This document shows positions 15,073 to 49,783 of a DNA stretch of 64,000 nucleotides, piece by piece. The notes under the pieces were generated by a model, which had not been told where the DNA came from, did not search any database, and worked only from the letters and a program-made list of their open reading frames with translations. The DNA is from an uncultured bacterium (GTDB taxonomy: Bacteria; Margulisbacteria; WOR-1; XYC2-FULL-46-14): assembly GCA_964421245.1 (NCBI GenBank), contig CAYQVW010000002.1, positions 280 to 64,279 of the forward strand, given 5' to 3'. Positions within the stretch are counted from its first letter, which is position 1. Each line of letters begins with the position of its first letter. The translations under genes and the position numbers were made by a program.

Positions 15073-15103
15073 AAGGTTCAAGTTCCAAGGGGCAAGGGTC
15101 AAG
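15073..15103. repeat. Degenerate heptamer array downstream of four-helix-bundle gene 1
   Basis: AAGGTTC AAGTTCC AAGGGGC AAGGGTC AAG. Confidence 0.7.
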
Positions 15104-15458
15104 AAGAATGCTGAAGAGAATTCATCAATCCCCTCAAAATTTTTCCAACCTCCTGCCTCTTATTATCTATATCATTATACTGATCATTTTGGATATAATT
15201 TAAATCCCTTGATAGCATTAGATAGTTCTCCACTTCCCCCAGGGAACCCTTTGATATTGCTAAAAATCTCAAATATTCTTTTCTATACGATCTTTCATAT
15301 CCCTCAGCTATATTTGCTGAAATTGAAACTGCGGCCCTAGTTATCTGAGAACGCAGACCATAAAATTCTTCTCTAGGAAATTGCCTGCTAATTTTATAAA
15401 TTTCCAAAACCAGGCCATAAGCCTTTTGCCAAACAATTAAATTTCTAAATCCTTTCAT
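15099..15458 (-). CDS. Four helix bundle protein (23S rRNA IVP / Avd-like family)
   Basis: FRNLIVWQKA..FPREEFYGLRSQITRAAVSISANIAEGY..FLAISKGSLGE. Confidence 0.92.
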   Translation of the reverse strand: MKGFRNLIVWQKAYGLVLEIYKISRQFPREEFYGLRSQITRAAVSISANIAEGYERSYRKEYLRFLAISKGSLGEVENYLMLSRDLNYIQNDQYNDIDNKRQEVGKILRGLMNSLQHSS

Positions 15459-15474
15459 AGCTCACTCCTCTCTT

Positions 15475-15503
15475 CCTGCCCCTTGACCCTTACTACTTGG
15501 CAC
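15475..15503. repeat. Degenerate heptamer array, inverted relative to the 15073 array
   Basis: CCTGCCC CTTGACC CTT..CTTGGCA; units are reverse complements of AAGGGGC/AAGGGTC. Confidence 0.7.
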
Positions 15504-16534
15504 TACTGTATCTGCTCCATCATCTGGAATAATGGAAGAACCATCGACAGCGCGATCAGGGCTACAATGCCCCCAACCGCCAAAGTTGATAGCGGCTCAA
15601 CCAAAGTAATCCATTTTTTAATAAAAGATTCTGTCTCCTGTTCATAATAATTAGCTGATTGAATCAAAATATCATCTAATGTCCCAGATTCTTCACCTAT
15701 TTTTATAATTTGAATCAAGGAGATTGGAAAAAGTGCGTTTCCGGCCAAAATGGTAGAAAAACTTTCACCTTGCTCAAGTCCAATATAAAGTTCGTCCAAT
15801 GCCTTTGAATAAATCTTACTATCAACACCTTGTTTAACCGCTTTTATTGCAGTCAAAACAGAAACACTACTTTTTAGCTGGTACCCAAGGCCCCTACAAA
15901 TCTTTGAAATTACTTTATTTTTATAAATTGATCCGATAAGTGGCAATTTTATTCTAATCTCTTCTTTTTTAAAAAAATAACCCAAAACTATTATTAAACC
16001 AATAATTAAAATAAAAATAAAAAACCAATTTTCTGATATTTTTAAAAACAATCTGGTCAGAAAGGGCAAATCAAAATTAAATTCGGAAAAGATCCCCTTA
16101 AAAGTTGGAAGAATAAATATCAACAAAAACAAAATGGAGAGAAAACTAAGCCCCAGCACAATTGAGGGATAGAGCAAGGCTTTCTTAATCTTATTTTTTG
16201 CCGAAAGACTATTTTGACTATATTGAACAATCTTTTCTAGAGAATCTTCTAGTTTCCCGGTTGCTATACCTATTTTAATAAGATTTATATCTTCATCCGG
16301 AAAACTATTGGTTTTAAGTGAAGATGCGAGTGTCTTTCCTTCTGCCAAATCAGTTGTTATCTTTTTTATAATTGATCCAAAATTCTTATCGCTCTGGTTT
16401 TGAATAATTTGAAGTGAGGCAACAATCGGGACCCCAGCCGCAAGCAGCGCCAAAAGCTGTTTATAAAAATCTAGCAATCTAGATTTTGAAAAGCTTTTTT
16501 GCGTTTTGAGTGGTAATCTTGGCAACCTCATCAC
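15503..16534 (-). CDS. Type II secretion F / PilC family inner-membrane platform protein
   Basis: QLLALLAAGVPI, ALLYP and IGEESGTLD duplicated T2SSF domains. Confidence 0.9.
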   Translation of the reverse strand: MMRLPRLPLKTQKSFSKSRLLDFYKQLLALLAAGVPIVASLQIIQNQSDKNFGSIIKKITTDLAEGKTLASSLKTNSFPDEDINLIKIGIATGKLEDSLEKIVQYSQNSLSAKNKIKKALLYPSIVLGLSFLSILFLLIFILPTFKGIFSEFNFDLPFLTRLFLKISENWFFIFILIIGLIIVLGYFFKKEEIRIKLPLIGSIYKNKVISKICRGLGYQLKSSVSVLTAIKAVKQGVDSKIYSKALDELYIGLEQGESFSTILAGNALFPISLIQIIKIGEESGTLDDILIQSANYYEQETESFIKKWITLVEPLSTLAVGGIVALIALSMVLPLFQMMEQIQ

Positions 16535-17243
16535 TACTTACTCCTTTTACCTTTGCAATCCTTTCAGCAATTATTGGGATATAGGCTGGCTCATTACGCT
16601 TACCACGATATGGTTCTGGAGCAAGATAGGGACAATCGGTTTCAAGCAGGAGCATTGATAAAGGAATCTTTTTAACATTCTCTCGCACATTGTCTGCTTT
16701 TTTAAAAGTTACCATTCCAGCAAATGAAATATAAAAACCGATCGTATGCGCATAATCTATTAATTTTTGATCTCCAGCAAAACAATGAAAAACTCCGCGC
16801 AAGTTTCCCTTTTTTTCTTCCTTCATGATATTAATAGTATCTTCTTGCGCATCACGGGCATGAATCACCACCGGCAAATCAAGTTCCTGTGATAAATTTA
16901 AAAATTTTCTAAAAGCTGCTTGTTGAATATCTTTTGGTTGCTTGTTGTGGAAATAATCCAGTCCGGTCTCCCCTATTGCTACCACATTCTTATCACTGGC
17001 CGTCTCTTTTATTTCGGCTATTGCCGTCTCAGTTGCCAACTTTGCATCGTGGGGATGAATTCCCACTGCTGCGTACATATAATTCGGGAAACGTTTGGTT
17101 AGCTCAAGTGCTTGGCGGGAAGAGTCTAAATCAAAAGAAGCATTGATAATAAGATCAATTTTTGCGGTTTTAGCTCGTTCAACAACTTGATCTAAATCAG
17201 AATACTCTGGCATGGTTAAATGCGCATGGGTCTCGATGTACAT
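16479..17243 (-). CDS. tatD: TatD family DNase
   Basis: ETHAHL, GIHPH, IGETGLDY, HCF and LLETDCPYLAP motifs. Confidence 0.95.
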   Translation of the reverse strand: MYIETHAHLTMPEYSDLDQVVERAKTAKIDLIINASFDLDSSRQALELTKRFPNYMYAAVGIHPHDAKLATETAIAEIKETASDKNVVAIGETGLDYFHNKQPKDIQQAAFRKFLNLSQELDLPVVIHARDAQEDTINIMKEEKKGNLRGVFHCFAGDQKLIDYAHTIGFYISFAGMVTFKKADNVRENVKKIPLSMLLLETDCPYLAPEPYRGKRNEPAYIPIIAERIAKVKGVSSDEVAKITTQNAKKLFKI

Positions 17244-17255
17244 GGCTCCTCCTCG

Positions 17256-18782
17256 TTATTTTTCGAGTCTTGGAAAGAGCGGATTGCCCTTCTTAACCTT
17301 TGTACCAGCAATTTTGATGCCCGCATAGGAGATTTGTTGAGGTTCTACTTTTTCAAGTGGTTGTGCGAAATTTAGTTGTTCCCACATCTTGCTTGCTGTC
17401 TCTGGCATAAAGGGGGTGACGAGAATCGCTACAGTTTTGAGTGTTTCGGCTAAGTTGTACATAACAGTTGCCAACTCTTCTTTTTTTGTTTCATCTTTTG
17501 CAAGCTTCCAAGGAGCCTGTTCTTCTATATATTTATTAGCACGTCCAATCAAAGCCCATATTGCAGCTAAGGCCTCCGAAAAAGCCAATTCTTTCATTGC
17601 CTCGTCCACCTTTTGAGGAGTATCCTTTATTAACGTGTCTTCTTGCCCCTTGACCCTTGGCACCTGCCCCTCAAAGTATTTCTCAATCATATTTAATGTT
17701 CGATGCAACAAATTCCCCAAATCATTCGCAAGATCAGAATTATATTTTTTCTTAAATGAATCCATGGAAAAATTGCCATCAGAACCAAATGGAACTTCGC
17801 GCATAAGAAAATAACGGACCGGATCTACTCCAAACTGATCAGACAAAGCAAGTGGATCAACCACGTTGCCAACTGACTTCGACATCTTCTTCCCCTCTAC
17901 CGTCCACCACCCATGACCAAAAATAGTTTTTGGAAGAGGAATCTCCGCCGCCATTAACATACAAGGCCAGGTTACTGCATGAAAGCGAACAATCTCTTTT
18001 CCCATTAGATGATAATCTGCTGGCCAATATTCTTTATACTTTTTACCATCTGGCCAGCCTAGCGCTGAAACATAATTAATCAGGGCATCAAACCAAACAT
18101 AAACAACATGCTTCTCATCTTCTTTTATGTTTATCCCCCAAGTAAAAGAGGTGCGGGTGACCGATAAATCACGCAAGCCCTGTTTTATAAAATTCAAAAC
18201 TTCATTTTTTCGAGAAGTTGGCTGAATAAAACCTGGATTGCCCTCGATATGTTTTAATAATTTATCCTGATATTTTGAAAGTTTGAAAAAATAGGTCTCT
18301 TCTTTTAACTTCTTAGTAGCCCTTCCACACTGTGGACACAATTTTCTGCCTTCCGGATCTTCTTTCAAAGAACTCTCTGTAACAAAATTCTCACAAGTTA
18401 CACAATACCAACCTTCATATTCTCCCTTATAAATATCCCCCTGAGCAATAAGTTTTGAAAAAATCCCCTGAACCACCTTCTTATGTCTATCTTCTGTTGT
18501 CCGTATAAAATCTGTATGTGAAATATTTAATTTTTTCCAGGCAGCTTGAAAACGTTTCACTAATTCATCCAAAAACTCTTGGGGCTTCCTGTCTCTCTCG
18601 CTAGCTGCATCATATACTTTCTGGCCATGCTCATCGGTTCCGGTTAAGAAACAAACATCAAACCCCTGCAACCTCTTATAGCGGGCTAAAACATCTGCTG
18701 CAACCGTAGTATAGGCATGTCCAATATGAGGAATGTCATTTACATAATAAATTGGAGTTGTAACGTAAAATTTATCTTTCAT
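17256..18782 (-). CDS. metG: Methionine--tRNA ligase
   Basis: TTPIYYVN..PHIGH (HIGH), KMSKS and a zinc knuckle. Confidence 0.97.
   Translation of the reverse strand: MKDKFYVTTPIYYVNDIPHIGHAYTTVAADVLARYKRLQGFDVCFLTGTDEHGQKVYDAASERDRKPQEFLDELVKRFQAAWKKLNISHTDFIRTTEDRHKKVVQGIFSKLIAQGDIYKGEYEGWYCVTCENFVTESSLKEDPEGRKLCPQCGRATKKLKEETYFFKLSKYQDKLLKHIEGNPGFIQPTSRKNEVLNFIKQGLRDLSVTRTSFTWGINIKEDEKHVVYVWFDALINYVSALGWPDGKKYKEYWPADYHLMGKEIVRFHAVTWPCMLMAAEIPLPKTIFGHGWWTVEGKKMSKSVGNVVDPLALSDQFGVDPVRYFLMREVPFGSDGNFSMDSFKKKYNSDLANDLGNLLHRTLNMIEKYFEGQVPRVKGQEDTLIKDTPQKVDEAMKELAFSEALAAIWALIGRANKYIEEQAPWKLAKDETKKEELATVMYNLAETLKTVAILVTPFMPETASKMWEQLNFAQPLEKVEPQQISYAGIKIAGTKVKKGNPLFPRLEK
17642..17670. repeat. Heptamer array in frame within metG
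   Basis: CTTGCCC CTTGACC CTTGGCA CCTGCCC encodes GQVPRVKGQE; same units as 15475-15503. Confidence 0.7.
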
Positions 18783-20044: not shown

Positions 20045-20083
20045 ATATAGAAATTATAGGTTTATAAGAGGTAGATGTCAATT

Positions 20084-21076: not shown

Positions 21077-21083
21077 CAGTATT

Positions 21084-21112: not shown

Positions 21113-21113
21113 G

Positions 21114-23660: not shown

Positions 23661-23674
23661 GACTTTCTATATAT

Positions 23675-28919: not shown

Positions 28920-28929
28920 AATCGTCCGG

Positions 28930-28995
28930 ATTCTCGGCACCCCCATGTCCATTCCCTTCATAAAACCCCTTTTTTGAACTGGCATGAAAATTGCT
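28930..28995 (+). promoter_or_regulatory. Shared 14-bp box plus sigma54-type -24/-12 promoter of four-helix-bundle gene 2
   Basis: ATTCTCGGCACCCC (28930-28943) and TGGCATGAAAATTGCT (GG-N10-GC, 28980-28995); both recur at 48343 and 48463. Confidence 0.7.
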
Positions 28996-29088
28996 AGTAA
29001 TTAATTAAAAATTAAAAATTTCCAAATTAAAAATATTGTATCGCCTTCGGCGATCCATTAAATTAATAAAAAAGGTGGTGAAGTAAAC

Positions 29089-29454
29089 ATGAAATACGAT
29101 CTTCGAGATAGAACAAGTAACTTTGGGATAAGAATAGTAAAACTCATAAACAGTTTTCCCAGAAATACTTCGGGCTTCGTATTAGGAAAACAAATGATAC
29201 GAGCTGGAACATCAGTTGGAGCAAACTGTGAAGAGGCAGATGCTGCTCAGAGCCCCAAGGACTTTCTACATAAGTTGTCATTATGTCTAAAAGAAGCAAA
29301 GGAAACAAGATATTGGCTAAACATAACTATCAAAACAAATATATTGCAAAGTGAAATAAGCTTGAAGGAAGCAAAATCCTTACTGCAAGAAGCTCATGAA
29401 TTGGCTAGTATATTTGCATCAATAATAAATAAAAAGAAAGAAATTAAAAATTAA
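29089..29454 (+). CDS. Four helix bundle protein (TIGR02436-like)
   Basis: DLRDRT..F..KQMIRAGTSVGANCEEA..SPKDFLHKL..KEAKETRYWL. Confidence 0.92.
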   Translation: MKYDLRDRTSNFGIRIVKLINSFPRNTSGFVLGKQMIRAGTSVGANCEEADAAQSPKDFLHKLSLCLKEAKETRYWLNITIKTNILQSEISLKEAKSLLQEAHELASIFASIINKKKEIKN

Positions 29455-29488
29455 CAAATTAAAAATTTTGGAGCTATTTATATAATAT

Positions 29489-29512
29489 TGTGCCGAGCGA
29501 AGTCGAGGCACA
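29489..29512. repeat. REP-like element, family B
   Basis: TGTGCCGAGCGAAGTCGAGGCACA; inverted relative at 46264-46285. Confidence 0.65.
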
Positions 29513-29578
29513 CATTGTTTTTAATTGGGATTTTTTAATTTTTTATTCTATTCTGTGCTAGTTTGATAACCCAGTATC

Positions 29579-30082: not shown

Positions 30083-30083
30083 A

Positions 30084-30491
30084 TTATTTGGGTAATATCC
30101 CTTTAACCCAAGAAACAAATCTATCGGCATGTAAAACTACTGCCTCTGCATCATGTTTTGGAAAACACTTCCCTTCATATTCGATCAGATTTTTCTTGGC
30201 GATAAGACGACGAAGATGATTTACCGCTTCCTTTAGCCCCTCTTTATTAATTAGAGAAAGAGTAAGTCGAACAGCATCATCATGATTTTTACTAGAACTT
30301 CTAATTCCGTACAAACAAACCAATAATGCATCATTAGCAGAAATCCCTGCATGCACAGCATCAAGTCCAGCCGCATTCCAATTCTCTTTGTCTAAATTTT
30401 CTTGGGCTGACTTTAGGAAATCCAAAGCTTTTTTAAGAAAACTAATGTAAGTTGATTTATCTACATTTGTAGTCTGAAACTTAGGGTTCAT
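30084..30491 (-). CDS. HEPN-domain protein (MNT-HEPN pair)
   Basis: KKALDFL..AVHAGISANDAL..H..KKNLIEY; overlaps the nucleotidyltransferase gene. Confidence 0.8.
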   Translation of the reverse strand: MNPKFQTTNVDKSTYISFLKKALDFLKSAQENLDKENWNAAGLDAVHAGISANDALLVCLYGIRSSSKNHDDAVRLTLSLINKEGLKEAVNHLRRLIAKKNLIEYEGKCFPKHDAEAVVLHADRFVSWVKGILPK

Positions 30492-31098: not shown

Positions 31099-31165
31099 TG
31101 GCTACTTTTGTAGCCATATGGCTACTTTTGTAGCCATTATACACACCCAAACAAACCCCTGTCAA
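31099..31165 (-). promoter_or_regulatory. sigma70 promoter with two tandem palindromic operators
   Basis: TTGACA-N18-TATAAT (31165-31136), then two copies of TGGCTACAAAAGTAGCCA directly before the ATG. Confidence 0.85.
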
Positions 31166-31167
31166 GC

Positions 31168-31203
31168 AAAAAAAGGGGTGACGAGCCTGTTAATCGCCAC
31201 CCC
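31168..31203 (-). terminator. Rho-independent terminator of the giant gene
   Basis: GGGGTGGCGA..TCGTCACCCC stem plus a T-run on the minus strand. Confidence 0.75.
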
Positions 31204-31220
31204 ATGATTATCTAATCTAT

Positions 31221-40200: not shown

Positions 40201-43028
40201 TGCTTCAAGTTACCACTAAAAACGGAAACATAAGCCTGAGTAGGATCATTGTATTCTTGCAAAATTAGAAAGTGCATAAAAGGAGAGATAACAACACGTG
40301 GCTGATCACCTAAGTTATTATTACTCATCTGAGCCAGTTTATTCAAAAAGACTGATGAGGTTGAAAAAGGATCATTATCTCCATTTATGTTTACTCGTCC
40401 AGTATCAGTTGCTAGAGCTGCTGCTGCAACAAGCAGGGTAACATATCCCGGCAACACCCTACTAACAGCAGCAACTGCATTAACTTCCGCTTTAACACTA
40501 AAATTAACCTCATAAAGTAGTTTTGCTAAAGCCATCTTCGCTACTTGGACCCGAATAGAATCAGATGGTTGCGGGGTTAAAGTGTCCCACCTTTTCCCTG
40601 TAGATAATTTTAAAGTTTTTTCAATAAATGCCAGTGGATCTTCGTTATATTCCTTAATAAGATCATGCCCAACAGAGTCAGCTATCCCTCTTTGAAGACC
40701 GAATGGCATTGCCCATTCCAATACTCCCAAACAATTTGTAGCTGTATTATGTATTTTATGAGCATCTGATTTAAAGTGATTCCAAAACCACCAAGTAATA
40801 GCTCCACCACCATATTGATCAAGTAGTCCTTGAAGTTTCTCTTGATTAGCAGCCAAACGATCCATATAAGTAATTTTATTAGCATTCCCTTTAGCTGATT
40901 TTAATTGATGACGTAAGGTCGCTCTCTCTGCAAAAGCGGCTTTAAAATGAGATTGAATTTTTGGGAATTGCTTTTGAGCATATCGAGCTTTTAAAGTTGC
41001 TATCTGCTGTTGAACCTCACGTCCACCAAAGTTTACAGAAACACGTTCTGTCTGGGCAACTCCACCACCACCAGTTAATGCATCATAAACAACTGCACTT
41101 CTGTCTAATTCTTTTGGAACTGGACGATGAACTGTTAACGAAAATCCAATCCTTCTAAGAATTGCAACAGCAGGTTCATTTCCTGTTAAAGTATAGACAA
41201 CTTCTTTTCCTTGAAGCAACTTATCACCGTAGGCCTCTAGAACTCCTGCTTCCTTAGCAGATATTCTTCCAGCATTATAGGTAACCTTTCTTCTTCCCTT
41301 CGCACTTTTAAGAGCAGCTGTAACTCCAGCCTCTCCCTTACCCCAAAATGTTTTTGGATATAATGCCAAAAGAGCTGCTTTAGCTTTTGGATCAGTTAAC
41401 TTTCCACAAATATCAGGAATCTGTGCATAATCAACTCTAGTTAACTTCTTTCCTCCAACGATCTTTCTTAAAACGGCTAATTCTACCGGATCAAATCTCT
41501 TCGCATTGCTTCCTCGTTGTTCATCAATTAATGCTAAACTTGCACTTGTACTTAGATTAGCAATCTTTATTTCAGAAGGCCCAAGCCTATCAGCAACAGT
41601 CTTAACATCTTGCCCTGTTAAAGTTGCTTCTCCCAAATTAGAAACAGTTCCCCCTAATCCATCAACAACATGCTTAATCCCTTTAATAAAACTCTTTGAA
41701 GGAATTTCTGAGAAAGTACAATCTACCTTATCCCCATCAAGTTCCTTCTGGCCATGAGTATCAATCAATATTTTTGGAGCTGAGCTAATCCCCTCAAGCA
41801 ATACGGCAGCCCGTCTATCATAAGCCTTTGCTGTTTGCGAAACTACAGTTAATACAAACTCTTTCTTATAATCTTTACCAAAACAAAATTTAACAGGAAC
41901 ACCCGCTTTAAGATCAGCCTTAACATTTTTTACTAATATCTGTTGAACAATCTGATATTTGATAGCTTCTTTCCGAGTAAATTTTTGACCTTTTTCTAAA
42001 AGATAATAATATCCTTCAAATTTTGCCCGTAATAATTTGGCTAAGGCTGGCTTGGATGTATCAAGAGATTTAATGGTTTTAACTACTTTATGAGCGACCA
42101 GTACAGCCTTACTCCATCCATCTAGGCTAAAATCTTTATTTTTCCCAAGAGACATAAGCAATTGAAAACTTAAAAACAATGCCCTCAAAAACAAACTACG
42201 GTCGTTAAGATTATCATAAGTATTTAAAGCTCTATTTATATTATTAAGAAGTTCAAGATAGATTCGGTTAGCTTCTTTTGGATCCATAGAAAGTTTCTCT
42301 GAAAGACTCTTAATTAGTTTTTCTCTAGATTGCATTTTTTGACGCTGGCTGGTTAATATCTGTTCAGAATGATCGTCATAGAACTTCTGCATGGAAGTAT
42401 GGAACTCACCAGTGTATCCAGCCATTTGAAGCATATTTTGATTGTAAGTACGTTGGAAACCGGTAGATTCTAGATTAAGACCAGAAATTGAAGCTGGGTT
42501 AATAACTACAGTTGAAACAGCTTTTAGGTCTGGGTTGTATCCAAATTTATTTAAAGTAACAAATAAAGGGTCTCTTTTTGCTGGACGATATACTCGAACT
42601 TTTTCCCCACCCAAAAAGGCTATTTTATTTTCGGTTAAAGTTCCTACTCTATCAGAAGCAAAGGTATAGAACTTAACTATAAGCTTTCCTTCTGCTATAG
42701 CATTAAACCATCTCAAAAATTGAGCTCTATCTGCCGCATTTTTTATTGGGAGAAGTTTTAATAGTCTACTCTTACTTAGTAGAGCAACTGTGTCGGCTGA
42801 GATTTCTGAAATCGGAGGTTTTCCCTGTTTACTTAATTCTGCATTAATAATTTTTAGAAGCGAGGTAAAAGCGGTACGGACTTTTGATTCAAGATAAATG
42901 GTCTTTGATTTTGAATCGGTTGATACAGCAAAAGCATGTCGCCCTTTGCCAAATTTCTGCACGGAGATCTTTTTGGCATCTAGCTTTACCAATCTTGGAA
43001 AGCGGTCATTTAATGACTCAATCCCCAT
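31221..43028 (-). CDS. Giant protein (3935 aa) with internal SecA-like DEAD ATPase and hydrophobic helical regions
   Basis: Uninterrupted 11.8-kb ORF with AAGGAGG RBS; SecA-like motifs GGGKT, YALRDHAE, VGDEGD..SRTPLIISEG, RFEDGQHQALEA, ISGTM and VYSLDE. Confidence 0.85.
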   Translation of the reverse strand: MGIESLNDRFPRLVKLDAKKISVQKFGKGRHAFAVSTDSKSKTIYLESKVRTAFTSLLKIINAELSKQGKPPISEISADTVALLSKSRLLKLLPIKNAADRAQFLRWFNAIAEGKLIVKFYTFASDRVGTLTENKIAFLGGEKVRVYRPAKRDPLFVTLNKFGYNPDLKAVSTVVINPASISGLNLESTGFQRTYNQNMLQMAGYTGEFHTSMQKFYDDHSEQILTSQRQKMQSREKLIKSLSEKLSMDPKEANRIYLELLNNINRALNTYDNLNDRSLFLRALFLSFQLLMSLGKNKDFSLDGWSKAVLVAHKVVKTIKSLDTSKPALAKLLRAKFEGYYYLLEKGQKFTRKEAIKYQIVQQILVKNVKADLKAGVPVKFCFGKDYKKEFVLTVVSQTAKAYDRRAAVLLEGISSAPKILIDTHGQKELDGDKVDCTFSEIPSKSFIKGIKHVVDGLGGTVSNLGEATLTGQDVKTVADRLGPSEIKIANLSTSASLALIDEQRGSNAKRFDPVELAVLRKIVGGKKLTRVDYAQIPDICGKLTDPKAKAALLALYPKTFWGKGEAGVTAALKSAKGRRKVTYNAGRISAKEAGVLEAYGDKLLQGKEVVYTLTGNEPAVAILRRIGFSLTVHRPVPKELDRSAVVYDALTGGGGVAQTERVSVNFGGREVQQQIATLKARYAQKQFPKIQSHFKAAFAERATLRHQLKSAKGNANKITYMDRLAANQEKLQGLLDQYGGGAITWWFWNHFKSDAHKIHNTATNCLGVLEWAMPFGLQRGIADSVGHDLIKEYNEDPLAFIEKTLKLSTGKRWDTLTPQPSDSIRVQVAKMALAKLLYEVNFSVKAEVNAVAAVSRVLPGYVTLLVAAAALATDTGRVNINGDNDPFSTSSVFLNKLAQMSNNNLGDQPRVVISPFMHFLILQEYNDPTQAYVSVFSGNLKQIIAKSNKVKPSDVAKLDNFVGKLLVRVNSNGYVLAEAKKLITSGELKGLKIKDGKVVLKRAIKSPASPFELYQPEKEEDSDRKNIGQLVLDSWRLMDLFRATPKSDRPLGVALQKSLQRHYPTTHKVSFKSYEDSSFNESIPLKTSVPGLDLLEGPAPIYVVPLWISQLGAQLVHRGGKTAYHLSKSIYQTYKMMNEFRSAVEAGDLDRAEEIYYGPKLARELRAAHAAGDKAKVNKLLGEISAHKMWQKTDGAIKGSKELFGSKEQEGKTGLIFTVAGLWWGITKYMLDPRIAYRNIKLHFQKIMNGDEDIFSLATASHAASMLFWGMWGMLVTYTDYAIGKGIFRWMGGKTPGHLPVPITLKPLVWAFKPLFQVVDGKIEKVRANKAAAKQEKDLQAECERRLGVLERLAGAGEKGWHHLTNWDNSPVASRLKAVGSSALRKINRVPVLRRVVGTTGELAHRGVVSPAKKIFTLYYSGKFWGAVRTIATVGLNRPLSPFNAYEKGRYADQVRRDLGVSGRIPASVLRGFYGDYKNPLPDLNLSRQAVFTIDTDNKVRMDRRADKRFALYKGRLKRIVKLLPSRYAVTLDNGKGGEKVESLRVGRVRIVDGNAFSPVVYRGEDSEMKLEVRIGRENLFAYTSEAVVGAVEKSISEAGSFVPTRLNMDPTTNTTSGSSATDPAEEARYERAKEAEIVEVNREFDAYFRANRLDIEAIDAKRAKVSTLRGELASATKGEKKRLLKEIKGLEAEIRADAVALIERTGVNGREGNALANYKVQVRLIKGIDLSPPQLDTIISGRDGRSSQKECGGGKTVIAAGISILRVLNGEKVYVLGTHKDYALRDHAEAEIYFKQFGISTGTNKGLQGGSLGSLRRAFQADVVYTSLHDLMFVNLANRSLPLNENIPISFKRSIVGDEGDYLLVTMSRTPLIISEGAGGLEGVVEANRWGRAAAYAKSFWKTPGGMWEFGSRGVQFTEEGLEFVRTKGLNEAMRKKIIRCLEALRYIQNGQVYCDYVGKRIFIIDQELDRLMIDNRFEDGQHQALEAVCGFKIRKDTVAVQSDTSLEFLNRFDVRGGNVVFISGTMNDPTVLDFCRKLGIKIFTQTENVPRIDLTDAKSRTQGETDQQYLERRLTELDAQLSIRGRTSSPIKIIVDPSNRAQVALAQAYNGRRRSIQGQSVKLSISTIEMNETVYHKNREAKADYIAREIIALRTRSTEPIVVQLFGDSALGRMIESRLPTLAKQVTLLTHENDSVARRQRVVDTAGNPNTITLGTFNRADDIRVQQGATKVVAFLAGAGTESWSVKQAHERFARDTDNAELRPVYSLDEAAFQYDQELQSQMRRPDFNMPERQVLDAKLQVGRQIASQQGLAQAEQTLWSMNQFRDYYNWFDTVGQSFMVNGSGRVSPIQVFRRLVSEYVNFVVARSFNNPENDTYEKRRAAVEHELEVLFGKRLNINWPAEGSDAAALQRRISRGITVALFSRFDGAKFAGIAFGNTGGAFHQQFRTWFEEAREAFRSGARHAVAEMSDIYTPKGRKVDAQAMVDREVEGLFAGLRTGMGRRILEAFEREFKLFPRKLNIDLTLDVDLPEEYTPERPKAPRAPEPTPASKPAEVRPPEARKVDPKAILTKPRGRRGEVIKVGRISTTLGSGPIDAFAREMHARGVRFFDARRGVVFGSTADVDTVLRAIPENYDGTRYAVIITRGTDGTPLIHLRRMNGMIVEGQGNQYLFIDAKSRVCVRDYIAAPDGSLQIGSTHDGQNPAHIDAVAGPGAGARVWTLRNLVDGHTAPTRMVPQASSTAPTVTVRTADFNSEYEMNTHLEGLSLKEGQRVRIVGNERVSLSGVTTEDARAFRRGHQAEMAILVDSGATATMEVNGKPVPMDENGEQIKAVQKEIESKELLEAARQAKEAGKSTIQRTIKVGESELTIDIRVSDVLEAHSGREAMVRIGEAVGKANPTLDPSKAASRVLSSLIDPALNPESVPTDVPLEERMYEHTRFVEVVPGVKADKATLEKLTLDPTHEDYIAARKQLFALLDGKVPDASRVIDTLRREGLLRKIMSQGVAQETNLEALQQRAAEEVLARHRSVFGTKLLEDPQVQLEVQERALELATLERAGHLVKVELESRGISEAEFYTLCRERGIESPIDQYRLLHEQNARTINDFNLSNFKAEFPMNNLTTGQKVRYSFRRALYSSYSPVTGMGSGLVAGLLGGLLKQVAKGSQVSLGAVLKEGYQTSLHWGVFEGKKIFLSKMMKINAHTAANLVIAYDSVVHPLVHGKDADIPANLFIGAYGLVPFLYTSHKVGAHFAKTYGNKLPGRAKLLSLAAAVIVSHLTAESAQIVWQNDTWGIRTYGQIPLYAIGKPASWIFKGISPSHWVNKGLKLGFNKDMNDMGTLGMALEVGMDLTSIVAAAKLFGKTFLKRVGLKAIPVLGTAASVLESTPLQNASTETRYYDISLAQAAQGKPVVHWARSETQADVVRVSSFRAVLKNNPRFALEVALALKDVGLLKGSVAEDLVKRTGIRSLKHLYSIKDPTAIERATKAMQDLCGKVEKGAMQKVVGVFVDNSLKEKMDEKRRAFFRRVLVSGMKRFKARLRRQGHVVLEDTAWAKPEFNSATNGAFQFRYKYRPEQGREHVFDRKGFESQLVGYFTKEMQALYKAYVDTNKAYDLYQKRVATQKARVAKGCKRFLTSQKIYNARGFRAYLVSLRAEQRKARQKMAKMRKLISSLRNPKVYFDFKGADGVFTLSGERGLVKLLGENKVAVRIAGVEQTFSIEPGSMDEVQSQIVRKVVQILVKPVRRSYAKTKKYIKDISQSIKDERAVLRRIPRSSRRLSGAKFQNAYTAARWEMIQRKKNKGVAKFLDAHKQINSTWKHMKRLGMPDNPNKVLVRAYFEGRVVGARKLFYVNRLPDFNRIRSRGVNFKRFASYLRKNGQSLYWSKATEARRVRGLKRWDGAPLEVDRQYVQGRTSGLLSRDTFNALASMAYSK

Positions 43029-43047
43029 TGTTACCTCCTTTAAAATG

Positions 43048-43078
43048 AAAAAAGCACGTACCTGTTACAACGTGCTTT
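43048..43078 (-). promoter_or_regulatory. Terminator-like hairpin in the leader of the giant gene (possible attenuator)
   Basis: AAAGCACGT-N10-ACGTGCTTTTTT between the promoter motif and the RBS. Confidence 0.45.
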
Positions 43079-43130
43079 ATTTAGAATTTCCTAATTTACA
43101 GGCAAAATTAGTTAACTCTTTCTATAATAT

Positions 43131-43159
43131 ATATCGTAATAAAGGATGAATAACTTGCA
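43131..43159 (-). promoter_or_regulatory. Orphan-regulon promoter motif, type B
   Basis: TGCAAGTT-attcatcctttatta-CGATAT. Confidence 0.75.
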
Positions 43160-43218
43160 TGAAAAACAAGAAAAATACTATCAAAATTTAGCCTGTTTAT
43201 AATAAATTTTAATGGTTA

Positions 43219-46200
43219 TTATTTTGTTAATGAGCTAGCAGCAACCACTCCGGTCTCTTTGCCAACAACAATCTCGTACCAGGCGCCTTTTTTCCCAACA
43301 ATCTCAACTACTGTTCCGGATTTCAACTTTCTAATCTTCGCTTTAGTCGTAGCATTCCTTAAAACTGTATCAAATTTAACAGTTGCTTTTCCAGTCAGTG
43401 GACCACCAGAACCACCAGCTCCTCCACCTGCACCAGGTCCTTTTGGCCCCCTAAGACCACTCGGTCGTTTTCCTCCACCCTTTCCCCACTCTGATTTAAA
43501 AGCATCGTATGCTTCTTTATCCGTTCCTTTTAAGTGTAGCTTAATCGCTTTACCAAGCCCCTTCTCTCTAATATTTCCAATAACTCTCTTAAACTGCATA
43601 TACCCCATTGGTCCTAAATCATCTTTATTTTCCTCTAACCACTTATCTAATTTAGCAGCAAGAGCATCTTTTGGAGTTTTAGCCTTAAATCCTGCCTTAA
43701 CTAATTTAACAAATTTATCAATTGCCGCAGCCATCTTTACCAATCTTTCTTTATTTGCTGGATGCCAATCCCTAGTAGGTATGTGGGTAGACATAGATTT
43801 TGGAGTACCCTTCCTATTAATTTCTCCGGTCCATTTTGTCATTAATTCTCTTTGTGCTTTTCCATATGGAACCTCTCCTCTTTGAAAATCGTCCGGAGTA
43901 ATATCCAAGAAACTCCTAACTTCATCAGTAATTCCCTTAGTATCTAAAGGAACAACTTTAAATTTCTTCTCAATAGGATCATACTTTTGACCCTTAACGA
44001 CCCCTTTTCTTAAGGCCGCAAATTTTGTTGCCTCAGATTGAGGAAGCTGTGAAAGAGGGAGTGCTAACAATGCTTCTATTGATTTATCAATTTTTCCAAA
44101 ACCATCATAAACTGCCTTTGCTCCTGCCCTAAGTCCCCTTTTCGGCTCACCAATTGCAAGAGCCAAACGATCACTTGGTCCATCTTTAAAAACTAAAGCA
44201 TCTTTCCTTCTTCTTAAATATGTACCATAATACGCCTTACGTGCTTCTCTTAGAGCTTCTTTATAGGCCACTCTAGCAGCACTCCAATTTTTGCTATCAA
44301 CAGCAACTTTTGCACGAGTTAGCGCTTGATCAACTTTGTTAGAATCATATGGTGTTGATAGTGCCTTTATTTGAGCATCTATACTCCTTTTAATTTCAGG
44401 CCTATAACTTCCTTTCGGACCAAGCATCCTTCTTTCTTCCGGACTTACATTTGTTTTTGCACTTTTAGGATCCCAATTATTCCTTTGCATACGTTCAAGC
44501 GCTGTACCAAAAGCAAACTCCTCTCTCTTTTCTGGAGTTAATCCACCCTCCTCCTCTCCATCCACTACATCTCCCCCCTCTTCAACCTCATCCACTTCCG
44601 GCTCTTCCATCTCTCCACCAGCTAAATACGCCTTAACATTTTTAGCTGTAAAAGCTGCTAGTTTTTCCAACTTCCCCTTAATCCCAAAATAAGTATCCAA
44701 TACACTTGGTGGAAGCTGCGCCAAACGAGATAAACCGACATATATGTCTTTCAAAACTACTAAGTCATAGGCGGTTAAAATAGGTCCTATTCCAGCAAAT
44801 TTAGCATACTGAGCCATAGCGGCATTATGAGCTGGATTTGTTATCTTTCCCAAAAATCCAGAAAGAGTATTAACTCCGGCAAAATTACTATCTGCCCAAG
44901 CCAAGGCCTCTTTGGTCTCACTCTTTGGCACCATTTCATACCCTAGAACCTCTTTATCATTATAAATACTAGCTGCTTTGTGTAAGGCAGCATTTGGATT
45001 TTGATCATTAAGATGTCGTCTGCGAGCAAAATATTCAAGCGTTGCAAGATGATTTCTGATATCAGATATACTCCACTTTCCATCAGACGATCCATTGATA
45101 TCAGAACCTCGATCAATTAAGTCAGTTAAAACTCCGGTAACTTTGCTACCAGCAGCTTTTAAATCACTTACTTTAACCTCTTTAGCATTTGGATCTATTT
45201 TTAATCCATAAAGTTTATTGAATAAACCGACAGTCTCCTGATCAGTCATTCCCTTAACAGAATAATCGTCCCAAATCCTATCTATTTTAGCTCTAGCCTT
45301 TTGATCACTTGCTTTTGCAGCCACTGCTTTCCAATCTACTGCATCAGGAAGAATTTTTCCATCTTTGACAGTATAACGATAGTCTCCAGAAGAGATCGTT
45401 ACCTCTCTTCCTTTTGATGTAGCCTTCAAGTATTCTACCAATTCACCACTTGATACCTTCCCATCTCGAACAACACCAGCGGCCGAAGTATATTTCTCCC
45501 ATGCAACATAAGTAAGGGAATAGTCATTACCATCTGGTCCTTTAACTTTTATTTTTATTGGATCGGTTTTACCAGATCCTGCAATATCTGCTGCCAAAAA
45601 GTTTAACTGATCCCCTGAATATGGAGGAGTCGGTCTTACTTCCTTTGGAACAGAGGCTAAATCTACTGGATCAACATCAGTTGTTACCTTTGCATATTTA
45701 GCCTTTGCTGCAGTAAAATCAGCTTTTAGATCTATTGTTGCCGGAAGCTTGTCAGAAGCTACTCTTGAATACGATTCAAGAATACGCTTTGGGAGATGAT
45801 TGGTCCCACGAGTTTTATGTCCAGATCCTTCCCACCCAAAAACATCAGATAAAACTTTATTTAGTGCAACTGAAGTTGGGCTTCCAGTATTATCATTTAT
45901 AACAACCGTTTTTGCATCAGAACTTAATTCAACAGTATAATCCCCAACTTTAATTTTAAGTTTAGGATTATCTTGTAGAAGTTTTGCAATCTGTTTAGCT
46001 TCAGCCTTATATCCTTTATTTCGATCAATACGAACTTTTACTCTAAGCTTAAGTCCTTTTATTTTACTTCGCTCAAGCATGGAAGCATAAAATCCTCTGG
46101 TATTAACAGACACCCTTCTCTTCCCTGTCCTTCGAAGCTCAGCCTTAGCTCGCCTAATCTCCGCCGGTTCAGCAGGTTTACACTTATTCTTTTTGGCAGG

Positions 46201-46251
46201 AAGACTAAAGCTTCCTCTCTTTGGATCATATTTATAACAACCTATTGCCAT
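43219..46251 (-). CDS. Hypothetical protein (1010 aa) with C-terminal bacterial SH3-like domain
   Basis: Gly/Pro linker followed by GKATVKFDTVLR..KLKSGTVVEIVGKKGAWYEIVVGKETGVV; acidic linker mid-protein. Confidence 0.75.
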   Translation of the reverse strand: MAIGCYKYDPKRGSFSLPAKKNKCKPAEPAEIRRAKAELRRTGKRRVSVNTRGFYASMLERSKIKGLKLRVKVRIDRNKGYKAEAKQIAKLLQDNPKLKIKVGDYTVELSSDAKTVVINDNTGSPTSVALNKVLSDVFGWEGSGHKTRGTNHLPKRILESYSRVASDKLPATIDLKADFTAAKAKYAKVTTDVDPVDLASVPKEVRPTPPYSGDQLNFLAADIAGSGKTDPIKIKVKGPDGNDYSLTYVAWEKYTSAAGVVRDGKVSSGELVEYLKATSKGREVTISSGDYRYTVKDGKILPDAVDWKAVAAKASDQKARAKIDRIWDDYSVKGMTDQETVGLFNKLYGLKIDPNAKEVKVSDLKAAGSKVTGVLTDLIDRGSDINGSSDGKWSISDIRNHLATLEYFARRRHLNDQNPNAALHKAASIYNDKEVLGYEMVPKSETKEALAWADSNFAGVNTLSGFLGKITNPAHNAAMAQYAKFAGIGPILTAYDLVVLKDIYVGLSRLAQLPPSVLDTYFGIKGKLEKLAAFTAKNVKAYLAGGEMEEPEVDEVEEGGDVVDGEEEGGLTPEKREEFAFGTALERMQRNNWDPKSAKTNVSPEERRMLGPKGSYRPEIKRSIDAQIKALSTPYDSNKVDQALTRAKVAVDSKNWSAARVAYKEALREARKAYYGTYLRRRKDALVFKDGPSDRLALAIGEPKRGLRAGAKAVYDGFGKIDKSIEALLALPLSQLPQSEATKFAALRKGVVKGQKYDPIEKKFKVVPLDTKGITDEVRSFLDITPDDFQRGEVPYGKAQRELMTKWTGEINRKGTPKSMSTHIPTRDWHPANKERLVKMAAAIDKFVKLVKAGFKAKTPKDALAAKLDKWLEENKDDLGPMGYMQFKRVIGNIREKGLGKAIKLHLKGTDKEAYDAFKSEWGKGGGKRPSGLRGPKGPGAGGGAGGSGGPLTGKATVKFDTVLRNATTKAKIRKLKSGTVVEIVGKKGAWYEIVVGKETGVVAASSLTK

Positions 46252-46263
46252 CCATTTTCTCCT

Positions 46264-46285
46264 ATGCTTCGACTTCGCTCAGCAT
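46264..46285. repeat. REP-like element, family B
   Basis: ATGCTTCGACTTCGCTCAGCAT, in the leader of the 46251 gene. Confidence 0.65.
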
Positions 46286-46330
46286 TTAAAAAAAATCATA
46301 ATAACCCCTTAACAGGGGTCTACATTATAT

Positions 46331-46359
46331 ATATCGCATTAACTTGCACAAAACTTGCA
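46331..46359 (-). promoter_or_regulatory. Orphan-regulon promoter motif, type B
   Basis: TGCAAGTT-ttgtgcaagttaatg-CGATAT. Confidence 0.75.
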
Positions 46360-46401
46360 CGCCTTCGCCAATTTTTTTGGCTTCGGCGCACAGGCATGGA
46401 A

Positions 46402-48198
46402 TTATACAGTTCCAGCAGTTTGTTCAAAAAATATCAATTGGCTCCTAACCTCTTGATGCTTTCCTTGCTTAAATAGACCTCTAAATATTTGTTCATAAGT
46501 TGCAGCATATTTATTGTAACCTCGGTCTCTTAACCTCACTAACCCATCTCTAACTCTTTTTCTAAGCCCCCTCGCTTCTTTTAGACTTCCTAGAGATTTT
46601 TCTATCAATGGTTTATAAACTGCATATTGAGCAATGTTCCTGTCCTTATTATTATAAACATTAGTCAAAATCGCTAATGCATTTTGAGGTTTACCCTGTT
46701 TTATTCTGATCCTAGCTACTAAATAGGCATACCCTGCATGATATTTTCCATTCAATTCTTTATATCCCTTAGAAGCAATTCTAGCCTGAGTATTTGCTTT
46801 TGTATATTCTTGTACATGATAGTATTGATAGGCATTTGTTGCTGCTATCTCAACATCACACTTTGCAACTAATTCTTTATCACCCAACTTAACTGCTATC
46901 TCTCTGGCTTCAGTAAGATAATGAAAACGATCTCCATATTCAACTGAATAGTGTAGAGTACTAACTTCAATTCCTTTTGCTCGAGCATATAAATCATTAG
47001 CTTTTAATTCAAGATGCATATCCTCGTTCAAGTCAATTGATATTTGTAAACTATTCAAAGCATCAATTGCTGTTTTACCCAACTCAACATCATAAGAGTC
47101 TTTATTGTTTAATGCATAAGCAATAGCTTTTCTAGCAAGAGCGAGATCCTTAAGGGGCATCTCTTTTGATCTAGTTGCTCTTTCAACTATTGCCCCAATC
47201 AGCTTAATTTCAACTGATAAACAATAGTATTCTGAGCCCTCCTTAATCTGCGCACGAAGAGCATATAGCGTTTCTATTAATTCAGGAAGGTTATCTACCT
47301 TATGTGCTCTGTGAGCCCTCTCAAGTAATTCTACGGTTTCTCTTTGTCTAACAACTAATGGTGTATCATTAGCTCTTGCCAAAGCAGCTTTTGCATCTAA
47401 TACTGCTTCAAGCCCATTTTCAAGTTTCGCATCCAAAGCCTTATTATAGAAAATATGTGCTTCAGCCTGAAGAATTAATTCCTGAGCCTGTTCCAATCTC
47501 TCTTTTGCCCCAACCTCCTGACTATAAAGTGCTTCTTCCTTAATTTCTCTTGCAAAATCAATTGCTGCATCATATCTTTCTTCACTAAATTCCGCATAAA
47601 CAATAGAAAAACGATAAATTATAGTAACTTCCAATTTTAACGCTACTACTCCTTTAGCACTTAATCCCTTATAAGAACCATCCTCAATCTTTGCTAAAAT
47701 AGCTTTTGCTGCTATTCCTGCCTTGGCATAATCTTTTGCTTTATAATAAACATAGGCCTGAGCAAGATCCGCCACATCTTCTCTAGTATCAAACTTATCT
47801 GGTTTCGTCTCAACCTTAACAGCTCTTCTTGGAGGAGGAGCCTCTGGTTCAAATTGAAATTCTGGATAAGTAACCGGCTCTTCTTCAGCTTCTGGAGTAT
47901 GAGCCTCTTTATGAACAGTAACTTTAGACATTTGAATAGTTAGGCCATCAGATGTAGTAGCTGTTGGAGTAGCCATAGCTTGTTTGATCACTACTGCTAA
48001 CTGCTCTGCTGGTTTATTTGGAGCTAACCCATTCCCTACAAGTCTCCCTTGTAATACTGAAAGTTTTGCTAAAGCTTCTTTGTGTTTTCCTGCTTTAAAA
48101 AGACGTCGAGCCTCTTTAAGCTCCGCTGGTTCAGCCGCTGCCGGCTTATAAATCGCAACCCCTTTTATCTTGCCTATCTCTCCATATTTTGGAACCAC
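46402..48198 (-). CDS. Hypothetical alpha-helical, TPR-like protein (598 aa)
   Basis: GTG start with AGGAGG RBS; repeated A..YY....Y..A helical pairs. Confidence 0.7.
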   Translation of the reverse strand: MVPKYGEIGKIKGVAIYKPAAAEPAELKEARRLFKAGKHKEALAKLSVLQGRLVGNGLAPNKPAEQLAVVIKQAMATPTATTSDGLTIQMSKVTVHKEAHTPEAEEEPVTYPEFQFEPEAPPPRRAVKVETKPDKFDTREDVADLAQAYVYYKAKDYAKAGIAAKAILAKIEDGSYKGLSAKGVVALKLEVTIIYRFSIVYAEFSEERYDAAIDFAREIKEEALYSQEVGAKERLEQAQELILQAEAHIFYNKALDAKLENGLEAVLDAKAALARANDTPLVVRQRETVELLERAHRAHKVDNLPELIETLYALRAQIKEGSEYYCLSVEIKLIGAIVERATRSKEMPLKDLALARKAIAYALNNKDSYDVELGKTAIDALNSLQISIDLNEDMHLELKANDLYARAKGIEVSTLHYSVEYGDRFHYLTEAREIAVKLGDKELVAKCDVEIAATNAYQYYHVQEYTKANTQARIASKGYKELNGKYHAGYAYLVARIRIKQGKPQNALAILTNVYNNKDRNIAQYAVYKPLIEKSLGSLKEARGLRKRVRDGLVRLRDRGYNKYAATYEQIFRGLFKQGKHQEVRSQLIFFEQTAGTV

Positions 48199-48252
48199 GA
48201 TATTCCTCCTAGCTCAAAGGCTATATATAATGTAGATCTCTCTACACAGATA

Positions 48253-48281
48253 CTATCGGGATGGGGGGGAGAAAACTTGCA
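48253..48281 (-). promoter_or_regulatory. Orphan-regulon promoter motif, type B
   Basis: TGCAAGTT-ttctcccccccatcc-CGATAG. Confidence 0.75.
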
Positions 48282-48342
48282 TGGATTTAGAAAATAGGAA
48301 TTAGGAAATAGGAACTAGTAAAGGGGAAGCAAAATTGTAGGA

Positions 48343-48478
48343 ATTCTCGGCACCCCTCTTGGAAATTAGAAACTAGGAGATAGGAACTAGCTCTGCTAAT
48401 TTTTACTATATTTACTCCATTTTTTTACCATTTTCTAGTTCCTAGTTTCTATTTCCTAACACGGGCATGGAAATTGCT
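48343..48478 (+). promoter_or_regulatory. Shared 14-bp box plus sigma54-type promoter of four-helix-bundle gene 3
   Basis: ATTCTCGGCACCCC (48343-48356) and GGGCATGGAAATTGCT (GG-N10-GC, 48463-48478). Confidence 0.7.
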
Positions 48479-48506
48479 ACATATAACACAAAGGAGGAAG
48501 CAAAAA

Positions 48507-48899
48507 ATGACAAAATACGGACCAATTAACAACTTTACTGACATCGGAGCCTATAAAATAGGAAAAGAAATAATTAAATTAACATATGGTATCACAGATA
48601 AACTTCCATCAGAAGAAAAATATGGATTAAGCTCTCAAATGAGAAGAGCTGCAGTTTCTTTCACTGCAAACATTGCAGAAGGATATGGAAGGTATCATTT
48701 TAAAGAAAATATACAATTTTGTCTTATTGGCAGAGGATCTATGTATGAATTGCAGGATCATATAATTTCATGTAAAGAAATCGGCTTTATAAAAAACGAT
48801 GAGTTTCAAAATATTTTTACCTTAACAGAAAATGCACTAAAAGCCTTAAACGGGTACATAAGATTATTAAAAAGACTAAAATTAAAAATAAAGGAATAA
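48507..48899 (+). CDS. Four helix bundle protein (23S rRNA IVP / Avd-like family)
   Basis: LPSEEKYGLSSQMRRAAVSFTANIAEGYGR..RGSMYEL; ATG at 48507 after AAGGAGG. Confidence 0.92.
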   Translation: MTKYGPINNFTDIGAYKIGKEIIKLTYGITDKLPSEEKYGLSSQMRRAAVSFTANIAEGYGRYHFKENIQFCLIGRGSMYELQDHIISCKEIGFIKNDEFQNIFTLTENALKALNGYIRLLKRLKLKIKE

Positions 48900-48931
48900 C
48901 AAACTAGTTCCTAATTTCTAGTCTCTAGTCC

Positions 48932-49783
48932 CTATTTCACAACCATAGTACCGATTCCGAAGTCAGTGAAAATCTCGAGGAGGAGTGCATGAGGAATTTG
49001 ACCATCAATAATGTGAACTTTTTCGACCCCTCTTTTGAGGGCCATCAAACTGCTTTTTACTTTTGGTATCATTCCACCGCTTAAATCGCCGGATTTAATC
49101 ATTTTATTAATCTTTTTTGTATTAACCTCCGAAATTAATTCTCCCTTCCTATTTAAAACACCCCTAACATCTGTCATAAGAATTAATTTAGAAGCACCAA
49201 GTTCAGCAGCAATTGCTGACGCCGCTCGATCTGCATTTATATTATAAACCTTACCACCTCTTCCAATTCCAATCGGCGCTAGAACCGGAATGTGCCCCTT
49301 TTTCATCCAACGACGTAAAAAACGATAACGAACGCCATCCACTTGGCCAACGAAGCCAAGATCAAGTCCTTTTGGCCAAAGCTTTTTGGCCTTTATTACC
49401 TTCCCCTTCTTCCCCCAAAACCCCCTAGCTTTTCCACCATTCTTTTTGATCAAGGAGACAATCTCCGCATTGACCTTCTTACCTAACACCTGCTGAACCG
49501 CTTGCATAGTGGCCTTATCTGTTACCCGTCTCCCATCGACAAATCTAGTCGGTATCTTCTTGCGTTTCAAATATTTGTTAATCGCCGGTCCCCCACCATG
49601 AACAATTACCGGATGCATTCCAATATATTTTAAAAGCACTGCATCACGCATAACAGATCGCTTGAGCTCTGGATCGGTCATCGCGGCTCCACCATACTTA
49701 ATAACAATAACCTGGTCATGGAACTGAATTATGTATGGCAATGCCTCCATTACTGTCTTTGCTTTTCTAATCCTGTGTTTCAT
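48932..49783 (-). CDS. argB: Acetylglutamate kinase
   Basis: VIKYGGAAM, VHGGGP, YNINAD and GGMIPK. Confidence 0.96.
   Translation of the reverse strand: MKHRIRKAKTVMEALPYIIQFHDQVIVIKYGGAAMTDPELKRSVMRDAVLLKYIGMHPVIVHGGGPAINKYLKRKKIPTRFVDGRRVTDKATMQAVQQVLGKKVNAEIVSLIKKNGGKARGFWGKKGKVIKAKKLWPKGLDLGFVGQVDGVRYRFLRRWMKKGHIPVLAPIGIGRGGKVYNINADRAASAIAAELGASKLILMTDVRGVLNRKGELISEVNTKKINKMIKSGDLSGGMIPKVKSSLMALKRGVEKVHIIDGQIPHALLLEIFTDFGIGTMVVK

Follow-up and report, generated by a model that had tools for sequence, protein, structure and literature searches.

The window analysed here is a stretch of 64,000 nucleotides (positions 280-64279 of contig C2) from the genome of an uncultured bacterium of the Margulisbacteria lineage WOR-1 (G000 in the following; assembly 1.75 Mb, 34 contigs, 95.4% complete). 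It contains three genes for small four-helix-bundle proteins, numbered 1 to 3, each bracketed by its own arrays of degenerate heptamers. The arrays had been described in an initial annotation of the DNA and were found at the positions described. The three proteins matched the family PF05635 with 137, 71.3 and 98.6 bits (cut-off 33.8) and TIGR02436 with 131.4, 92.2 and 97.1 bits (cut-off 24), respectively. The closest solved relatives by sequence were 2GSC (Xanthomonas XCC0516; E 2e-18) and 2RLD. All three cassettes, i.e. the genes with their arrays, sit between protein-coding open reading frames (ORFs) and not in helix 9, 25 or 45 of the 23S rRNA, and a scan of the window with Rfam at the gathering threshold found no RNA family. 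The earlier statement that the heptamer unit differs per locus was true, yet the units are drawn from a genome-wide pool of related heptamers.

Cassette 1 is on the minus strand. Its ORF (15099-15458) encodes 119 amino acids and is followed by a 3' arm (15073-15100) formed, on the plus strand, by four heptamer units, of which two are degenerate and the last overlaps the stop codon; the arm adjoins the ribosome-binding site of the next gene. The 5' arm (15475-15502) is the complement of the 3' units, stands directly before the ribosome-binding site of gene 1 and reaches as far as the upstream gene's stop at 15503, filling the gap.

Cassette 2 is on the plus strand and has an enhancer-like 17-mer (28923-28939), which differs by two mismatches from the genome-wide motif TGTCCGGAATCTCGGCA. 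It is followed by a predicted sigma-54-type promoter, TGGCAT-N5-TTGCT (28980-28995; chance expectation 0.06 matches), by the 5' arm, an AT-rich heptamer array (29000-29036), and by a small hairpin (29040-29054). The ORF (29089-29454; 121 amino acids) has a heptamer array of the same orientation spanning its 3' end (29430-29467), and after a GC hairpin (29490-29511) the cassette is closed by its 3' arm, an inverted array (29517-29549).

Cassette 3, also on the plus strand, is the most elaborate, its layout being array(+), array(+), loop, array(-), promoter, ORF, array(-). The two forward-orientation arrays (48283-48322 and 48363-48390) have a partial enhancer-like motif between them (48337-48353), and the reverse-orientation array upstream of the promoter (48432-48458) forms a local hairpin with the second of them. 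The predicted sigma-54-type promoter, GGGCAT-N5-TTGCT (48463-48478), precedes an ORF of 130 amino acids counted from ATG (48507-48899), and the reverse-orientation array of the 3' arm (48903-48938) overlaps the 3' end of a convergent gene ending at 48932. Gene 3 is antisense to both neighbour genes and has its own promoter.

PF05635 genes occur nine times in G000, each with an intact ORF. Inspection by eye shows every one of them with an array right after the stop codon and a complementary array upstream of the ORF or at its 5' end. When the upstream flank was locally aligned with the reverse-complemented downstream flank, the nine genes gave inverted-flank scores of 32, 20, 53, 25, 30, 28, 22, 44 and 39, the median of 1515 crude background ORFs being 18 and their 99th percentile 26. 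Seven of the nine loci exceeded the 95th percentile of 155 displaced controls. Only 9 of the 1515 background ORFs scored 28 or higher, and these included a PDDEXK_3 gene of like layout and the neighbour of gene 3. The folding of the flanks had been suggested as a check on all genomic loci. In eight of the nine cassettes the minimum-energy fold predicted for the sense RNA joins the 5' flank to the 3' flank by 11-58 pairs; long-range pairs numbered 17 in cassette 1 and 46 in cassette 2, and the duplex z-scores ranged from -3.5 to -9.3. In the ninth cassette, on contig C17, each flank forms its own hairpin in the predicted fold. This copy sits between two near-identical hairpins (direct-repeat score 139).

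One of the nine cassettes (C11:9676-10029) lies within a tRNA operon, after the genes for tRNA-Gly-gcc, tRNA-Lys and tRNA-Leu-tag and before that for tRNA-Gly-tcc, and has GC-rich hairpins in both arms. A relative of its protein in G025 (68% identity) also adjoins a tRNA-Gly gene. The PDDEXK_3 (GxxExxY-type) gene at C26:7772-8251 is bracketed by inverted short-period arrays (flank score 31) as well, and has the sigma-54 module treated below.

Inverted arms are a family-wide trait, mostly with period 7. Eighty loci from many phyla came out of a scan of species-representative genomes; 74 of them were used, five having been dropped for odd ORF length or a contig end and one (L075) for lack of a detectable start codon. 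Of the 74 loci from other phyla, 68 exceeded the 95th percentile of 155 displaced controls, and the direct-repeat scores stayed at background (median 17 vs 34 for inverted). The self-match of the arms was 0.59 at lag 7 and 0.24-0.31 at other lags; among 134 arms the best lag was 7 in 93, 8 in 18, 9 in eight and 10 in ten. Some loci in other phyla add non-periodic complementary segments to the arms. The 95th-percentile threshold was also passed by 41 of the 61 cassettes from same-class relatives, where periods 8-10 are frequent.

Genes 1 and 2 sit in inserts that are lacking at the same junctions in three to four related genomes. The junctions were located with the flanking proteins as probes; stable synteny in relatives, which the initial annotation had set against its own idea, was not seen. 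The gene 1 junction is tight and repeat-free in G003, G001, G011 and G006. Another PF05635 gene (38% identity) occurs in G002 one junction further along the operon, with its own arrays; its ORF interrupts one arm of a larger hairpin, in the order array(+), ORF, array(+), loop, array(-). In G006 that further junction (L011, G006:C10:42000-48000, locus positions 3208-4384) holds a gene of about 1.1 kb, flanked by short-period arrays, which we take to be DUF1016-like from its sequence. The gene 2 junction measures 0-64 nucleotides in G003, G011 and G006 and 659 nucleotides in G000. For gene 3, the genes flanking the block at 30.1-48.9 kb of the window are adjacent in G002, where the whole block including gene 3 is missing.

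Larger differences were seen as well. The region 30084-48198 of the window is a block of about 19 kb that bears ORFs of 3935 and 1010 amino acids, its two flanking genes being adjacent in G002. Conversely, G002 (L002, G002:C1:745000-757000, locus positions 4665-7167) has an insert of about 2.2 kb after the gene labelled ruvA, followed by a duplicate of the last 67 codons of that gene. The neighbour labels pilC, pilin, ruvA and argB are carried over from the initial annotation and are assumed here.

Heptamer arrays are not confined to the cassettes. With strict settings 97 period-7 arrays were found in G000, against 0-18 at periods 4-6 and 8-12, and a core-column detector returned 180 arrays for lag 7, compared with 14-82 for lags 6 and 8-10 and zero for lag 5; lenient period-7 detectors discriminated poorly. 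The initial annotation had named it as counting against its idea if arrays were no more frequent near the PF05635 genes than in other intergenic DNA. An excess was found: eight of the 97 strict arrays lie within 300 nucleotides of the nine genes, a span of 0.5% of the genome. An inverted partner at a distance of at most 700 nucleotides is present for 13 of the 97 arrays, seven of these 13 being at PF05635 genes and 84 arrays being solitary. Away from the PF05635 genes there are six inverted array pairs. The heptamer units are linked through single-base steps across the genome, and in single-linkage clustering 91 of the 97 arrays chain into one cluster, so that the units form a continuum without clean families.

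The density of strict period-7 arrays does not track the copy number of PF05635. Per 100 kb it is 5.5 in G000 (nine matches), 2.0 in G002 (11 matches; 100 kb sampled) and 4.0 in G013 (10 matches; 100 kb sampled), and in genomes with no PF05635 match 5.2 in G003 (96 kb sampled), 2.4 in G007 (127 kb sampled) and 0 in G020 (200 kb sampled), the last three genomes being only 89-93% complete, so that a PF05635 gene may have been missed. Arrays thus exist without PF05635 genes; the feature peculiar to the family is that inverted arrays pair around the ORF. The earlier suggestion that the protein propagates the arrays is not supported, in view of the like densities in G003 and G007 and of the large share of solitary arrays.

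Nearly half of the strict arrays (48 of 97) lie inside frames that run on without a stop for 60 codons or more to either side. Such arrays are found in housekeeping-type genes, where they encode short variable segments (e.g. G000 C7:49899, 50575 and 22785). In the window an array at 51218-51251 lies within the ORF 50961-52004 (minus strand), presumably argC from its sequence, and codes for a variable segment without a change in length. At this site G002 and G003 have different units, and G011 and G001 have no array. The position at this arginine-pathway ORF is thus kept while the unit turns over (three genera, three units).

Five of the nine cassettes, those of genes 2 and 3 included, have a putative sigma-54-type promoter GG-N10-GC (TGGCATGAAAATTGCT and variants) 23-93 nucleotides before the start codon. 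In genes 2 and 3 the predicted promoters have GG at -24 and GC at -12 with canonical spacing. The conserved 17-mer TGTCCGGAATCTCGGCA stands in either orientation 40-118 nucleotides upstream of the promoter in four of the five, including gene 2; gene 3 has only a partial copy, which the motif search did not detect. The same module also precedes four ORF6N genes, two PDDEXK_3 genes, a short SSB gene, a gene with a weak Y1_Tnp match and a PilT-type ATPase gene, and some modules belonging to other genes contain a heptamer hairpin between promoter and 17-mer. For a DUF1016/YhcG gene only the promoter was found, with no 17-mer. One module stands upstream of a PDDEXK_3 gene, and 37 nucleotides after that gene comes a response-regulator-type activator (G000:C3:111313-112707). 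Outside the window the module sites in G000 are C6:14130-14280, C11:41700-41800, C17:27810-27885, C2:65750-65900, C2:133280-133430, C4:~41900, C13:22820-22895, C23:16050-16195, C26:7660-7740, C3:~113150 and C9:~5680. The module also occurs in G003, a genome with no PF05635 match, where it stands ahead of one KilA-N and one DUF1016 gene. In the other genomes the 17-mer was found 1-2 times each and a reversed-pattern control 0-1 times, and a loose promoter pattern gave 103 matches, most of them by chance.

The gene rpoN and four activators are present in G000. An RtcR-type regulator was considered and set aside; read from their sequences, the N-terminal regions of the four activators are REC or GAF. 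A literature search joining these gene families with sigma-54 gave nothing relevant, and the sigma-54 module before PF05635 cassettes is new in this analysis. That the module is common to PF05635, ORF6N, PDDEXK_3, DUF1016 and SSB genes suggests that in this lineage they make up a single regulated set of small, "selfish-looking" genes. Within the window a further promoter string (17303-17321, minus strand), with two mismatches to the 19-mer of the module, lies 63 nucleotides before an ORF of 254 amino acids (16479-17243), with no enhancer motif nearby. An ORF of 177 amino acids behind a sigma-54 module at C10:9071-9604 has a weak match to the IS200-like Y1_Tnp (23.0 bits, at the cut-off of 23), and its product is a possible hairpin-specific enzyme acting on the cassettes in trans.

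The reading that we rank first, tentatively and with a probability somewhat short of even, is that each gene belongs, as its ORF, to a self-contained insert some 430-660 bases long, of the type of the intervening sequences (IVSs) of rRNA, whose arms pair and insulate the insert. The insert consists of a PF05635 ORF with its own ribosome-binding site, closed at both ends by oppositely oriented degenerate heptamer arrays, and in genes 2 and 3 adds its own predicted sigma-54-type promoter. The cassette would usually be transcribed by read-through from the host operon, and the transcribed arms would pair into an imperfect stem closing off the ORF. This pairing could take place in any register because the arms are periodic. 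By analogy with the ORF-bearing 23S rRNA intervening sequences, RNase III, the gene of which is present in G000, would cleave the arm stem. Cleavage would let the insert sit harmlessly in mRNA, tRNA or rRNA operons, and would also set the fate of the mRNA of the ORF.

The closest known counterpart is the 23S rRNA IVS. According to the Coxiella burnetii paper (PMC4990558), the IVS of that species is 428 nucleotides long, has a 28-bp terminal stem, is excised by RNase III and carries GACAGAT heptamer repeats before its S23p ORF; the paper cites ORF-bearing 23S rRNA IVSs also for Leptospira and Brucella and states that the Xanthomonas protein is a pentamer. As in these elements, a PF05635/S23p ORF lies here in the loop of terminal inverted repeats, weakly so for gene 1, tandem heptamers stand before the ORF and the element is located in a transcribed operon; cassette 1 (about 430 nucleotides) resembles the Coxiella IVS in size. 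Unlike the 23S rRNA IVSs, the present copies are found between protein genes, one of them in a tRNA operon, with nine per genome; moreover both arms are heptamer arrays, five of the nine copies have their own sigma-54-type promoter, all ORFs are intact, and RNase III cleavage is proposed by analogy. Full-text literature searches, supplements aside, found no description of such cassettes outside rRNA, and among the papers found the Coxiella paper alone links S23p to heptamer repeats. The initial annotation had offered an IVS-like cassette with flanks able to pair around the ORF, or else a protein that binds or propagates the arrays; the first part is supported by the predicted folds, the empty sites in relatives and the design of the Coxiella IVS, binding may be hinted at by the modest link between protein and arm similarity, and propagation is not supported.

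The orientation of the cassettes is in line with the IVS-type reading. Of 83 loci, 37 had both neighbours resolved; ten others were left aside, and in 36 one or both neighbours stayed unresolved. Among the 37, the cassette was co-directional with both neighbours in 26 loci, with the upstream gene only in seven, opposite to both in three and divergent in one. Between co-directional neighbours 26 of 29 cassettes share their direction and three are opposed (binomial 1.5e-5), and the upstream gene was co-directional in 47 of 55 loci. This co-orientation speaks for dependence on host transcription.

Several observations weigh against the IVS-type reading. The arms of gene 1 are short and weak (score 20; background rank 0.30). 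Selection on a sense RNA stem should leave more G·U than A·C in the arm mismatches; the counts were 15 and 15 in the own cassettes, 96 and 92 in other phyla and 100 and 103 in relatives, i.e. no wobble signature was present. In the 25 loci with arrays detectable independently on both sides, arm complementarity was 19.40 and remained 19.39 with the unit order shuffled (Wilcoxon p 0.75), so that the complementarity lies in the shared unit and not in a fixed palindrome. The wobble and register tests speak against a finely tuned RNA stem, the absence of a favoured register being also predicted by a periodic stem. In gene 3 and the C17 copy the sigma-54-type promoter lies within the 5' arm, and transcripts from it would therefore be without that arm. 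Finally, arm sequence modestly tracks protein similarity, a link which a pure stem does not predict. With the four arm tests taken together the IVS-type reading still comes first, held tentatively, with protein binding and handles in the DNA as live rivals.

A distinctly less probable explanation than the IVS-type insert is that the arms consist of arrayed binding sites for the four-helix-bundle protein of the cassette itself, serving self-regulation or the marking of the cassette, so that their symmetry would result from protein binding and not from strand pairing. The arm units keep a core of four to five bases with free positions, the arms show neither wobble bias nor favoured register, and for each of the solved relatives 2GSC and 2RLD five chains are listed, all of which is consistent with binding. 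So is the correlation between protein identity and arm or unit similarity, with a Mantel r of 0.276 in 47 loci from many phyla, reached in none of 2000 permutations. The share of pairs with similar arms is 2-4% at 20-30% protein identity and reaches 44% above 50%. Among 48 cassettes of the same class r was 0.16 within genomes (42/2000) and 0.07 between genomes (14/2000). The correlation hints at a sequence-specific constraint on the arms. However, it is weak, near baseline at 35-45% identity and confounded by shared descent, and the same kinds of array are also found where the gene is lacking, as solitary arrays (84 of 97), within ORFs (48 of 97) and at like densities in genome samples without a PF05635 match. 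A wider version of this explanation appears unlikely: that each subfamily of ring-forming four-helix-bundle proteins reads its own repeat unit, the arms being sequence-specific handles for the protein and not a stem and the family a large and naturally diversified collection of nucleic-acid binders, and that the cassettes spread like hairpin elements among the heptamer arrays of bacterial genomes.

Also rather improbable is that the arms act as DNA, as hairpin-forming or homologous handles by which the cassette is copied into existing arrays or hairpins, through recombination between arrays or through a hairpin-specific enzyme in trans. In its favour, the mismatches of the arms are strand-symmetric, and certain layouts have the ORF inserted within one arm of a larger hairpin (the G002 locus; array(-), promoter, ORF, array(-) in gene 3). 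The position of the C17 copy between two near-identical hairpins, the independent occupation of neighbouring junctions of one operon in G000, G002 and G006, the orphan arrays with the same units as possible targets and the IS200-like Y1_Tnp match likewise favour it. On the other side, no target-site duplication was evident at the gene 1 junction in comparison with the empty sites, and no excision junction was seen. A contig junction that joins 29034 to 29513 skips 478 bases, approximately cassette 2, in one contig of each of two among four sequencing runs, all presumably of DNA; reading it as excision was dropped, the shorter side being 25 bases long and the repeats AT-rich. Inverted array pairs away from PF05635 genes amount to just six, and the strong co-orientation with host genes is not predicted, though selection after insertion could yield it. 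REPIN/RAYT elements and MITEs (miniature inverted-repeat transposable elements) also consist of short inverted repeat pairs that can form a hairpin and spread through the genome without a transposase of their own. Unlike in these, the arms of the cassettes are periodic and locus-specific, the ORF fills the loop and no target duplication was seen, and the sole Y1 transposase-like match in G000 is the one at the cut-off.

That the arrays are merely a generic filler of recently acquired or non-coding DNA, gathering beside any inserted gene, is very improbable and already largely refuted: arrays are indeed common genome-wide and also stand beside or before further small inserted genes (PDDEXK_3, ORF6N and, in G006, DUF1016), but more than half of those with an inverted partner (7/13) are at the nine PF05635 genes, inverted arms occur in 68/74 loci of other phyla vs 5% of displaced controls, and direct repeats stay at background (17 vs 34 inverted).

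The protein Avd of diversity-generating retroelements belongs to the same fold superfamily, and gene 1 matched PF22296 (bAvd) with 42.8 bits (cut-off 40). Unlike Avd, gene 1 reached only 40.8 bits with the equivalog model NF033474 (cut-off 80), and genes 2 and 3 had no match. A reading as a diversity-generating retroelement was rejected because no RVT_1 reverse transcriptase match was found in G000 at its 95.4% completeness.

PF05635 is a very large family without known function, and the heptamer repeats of bacteria are an old puzzle. A PF05635 gene with inverted periodic arms constitutes one insertable unit outside rRNA, in many phyla, and this unit ties together the rRNA intervening sequences, the dispersed heptamer repeats and the PF05635 family. 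The options for its working are narrowed: the arrays are independent of the gene and the arms have no RNA wobble signature, and the cassettes are nonetheless strongly co-oriented with host operons.

Dispersed heptamer repeats of no known function are described from Xanthomonas, Nostoc, Beggiatoaceae, Microcystis and some Bacteroidetes in the portions available of two papers (PMC4692102, PMC4679880), and in Xanthomonas these include 70-75 convergent inverted pairs. The present arrays resemble them as tandem degenerate heptamers between genes, some in convergent inverted pairs. They differ in that the inverted pairs enclose an ORF and that half of the solitary arrays are within ORFs, and the same portions of the two papers draw no link to PF05635 genes.

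A perfect 20-base tandem duplicate of a palindromic unit is also present in the window at 31099-31137, just upstream of the ORF 30481-31098.

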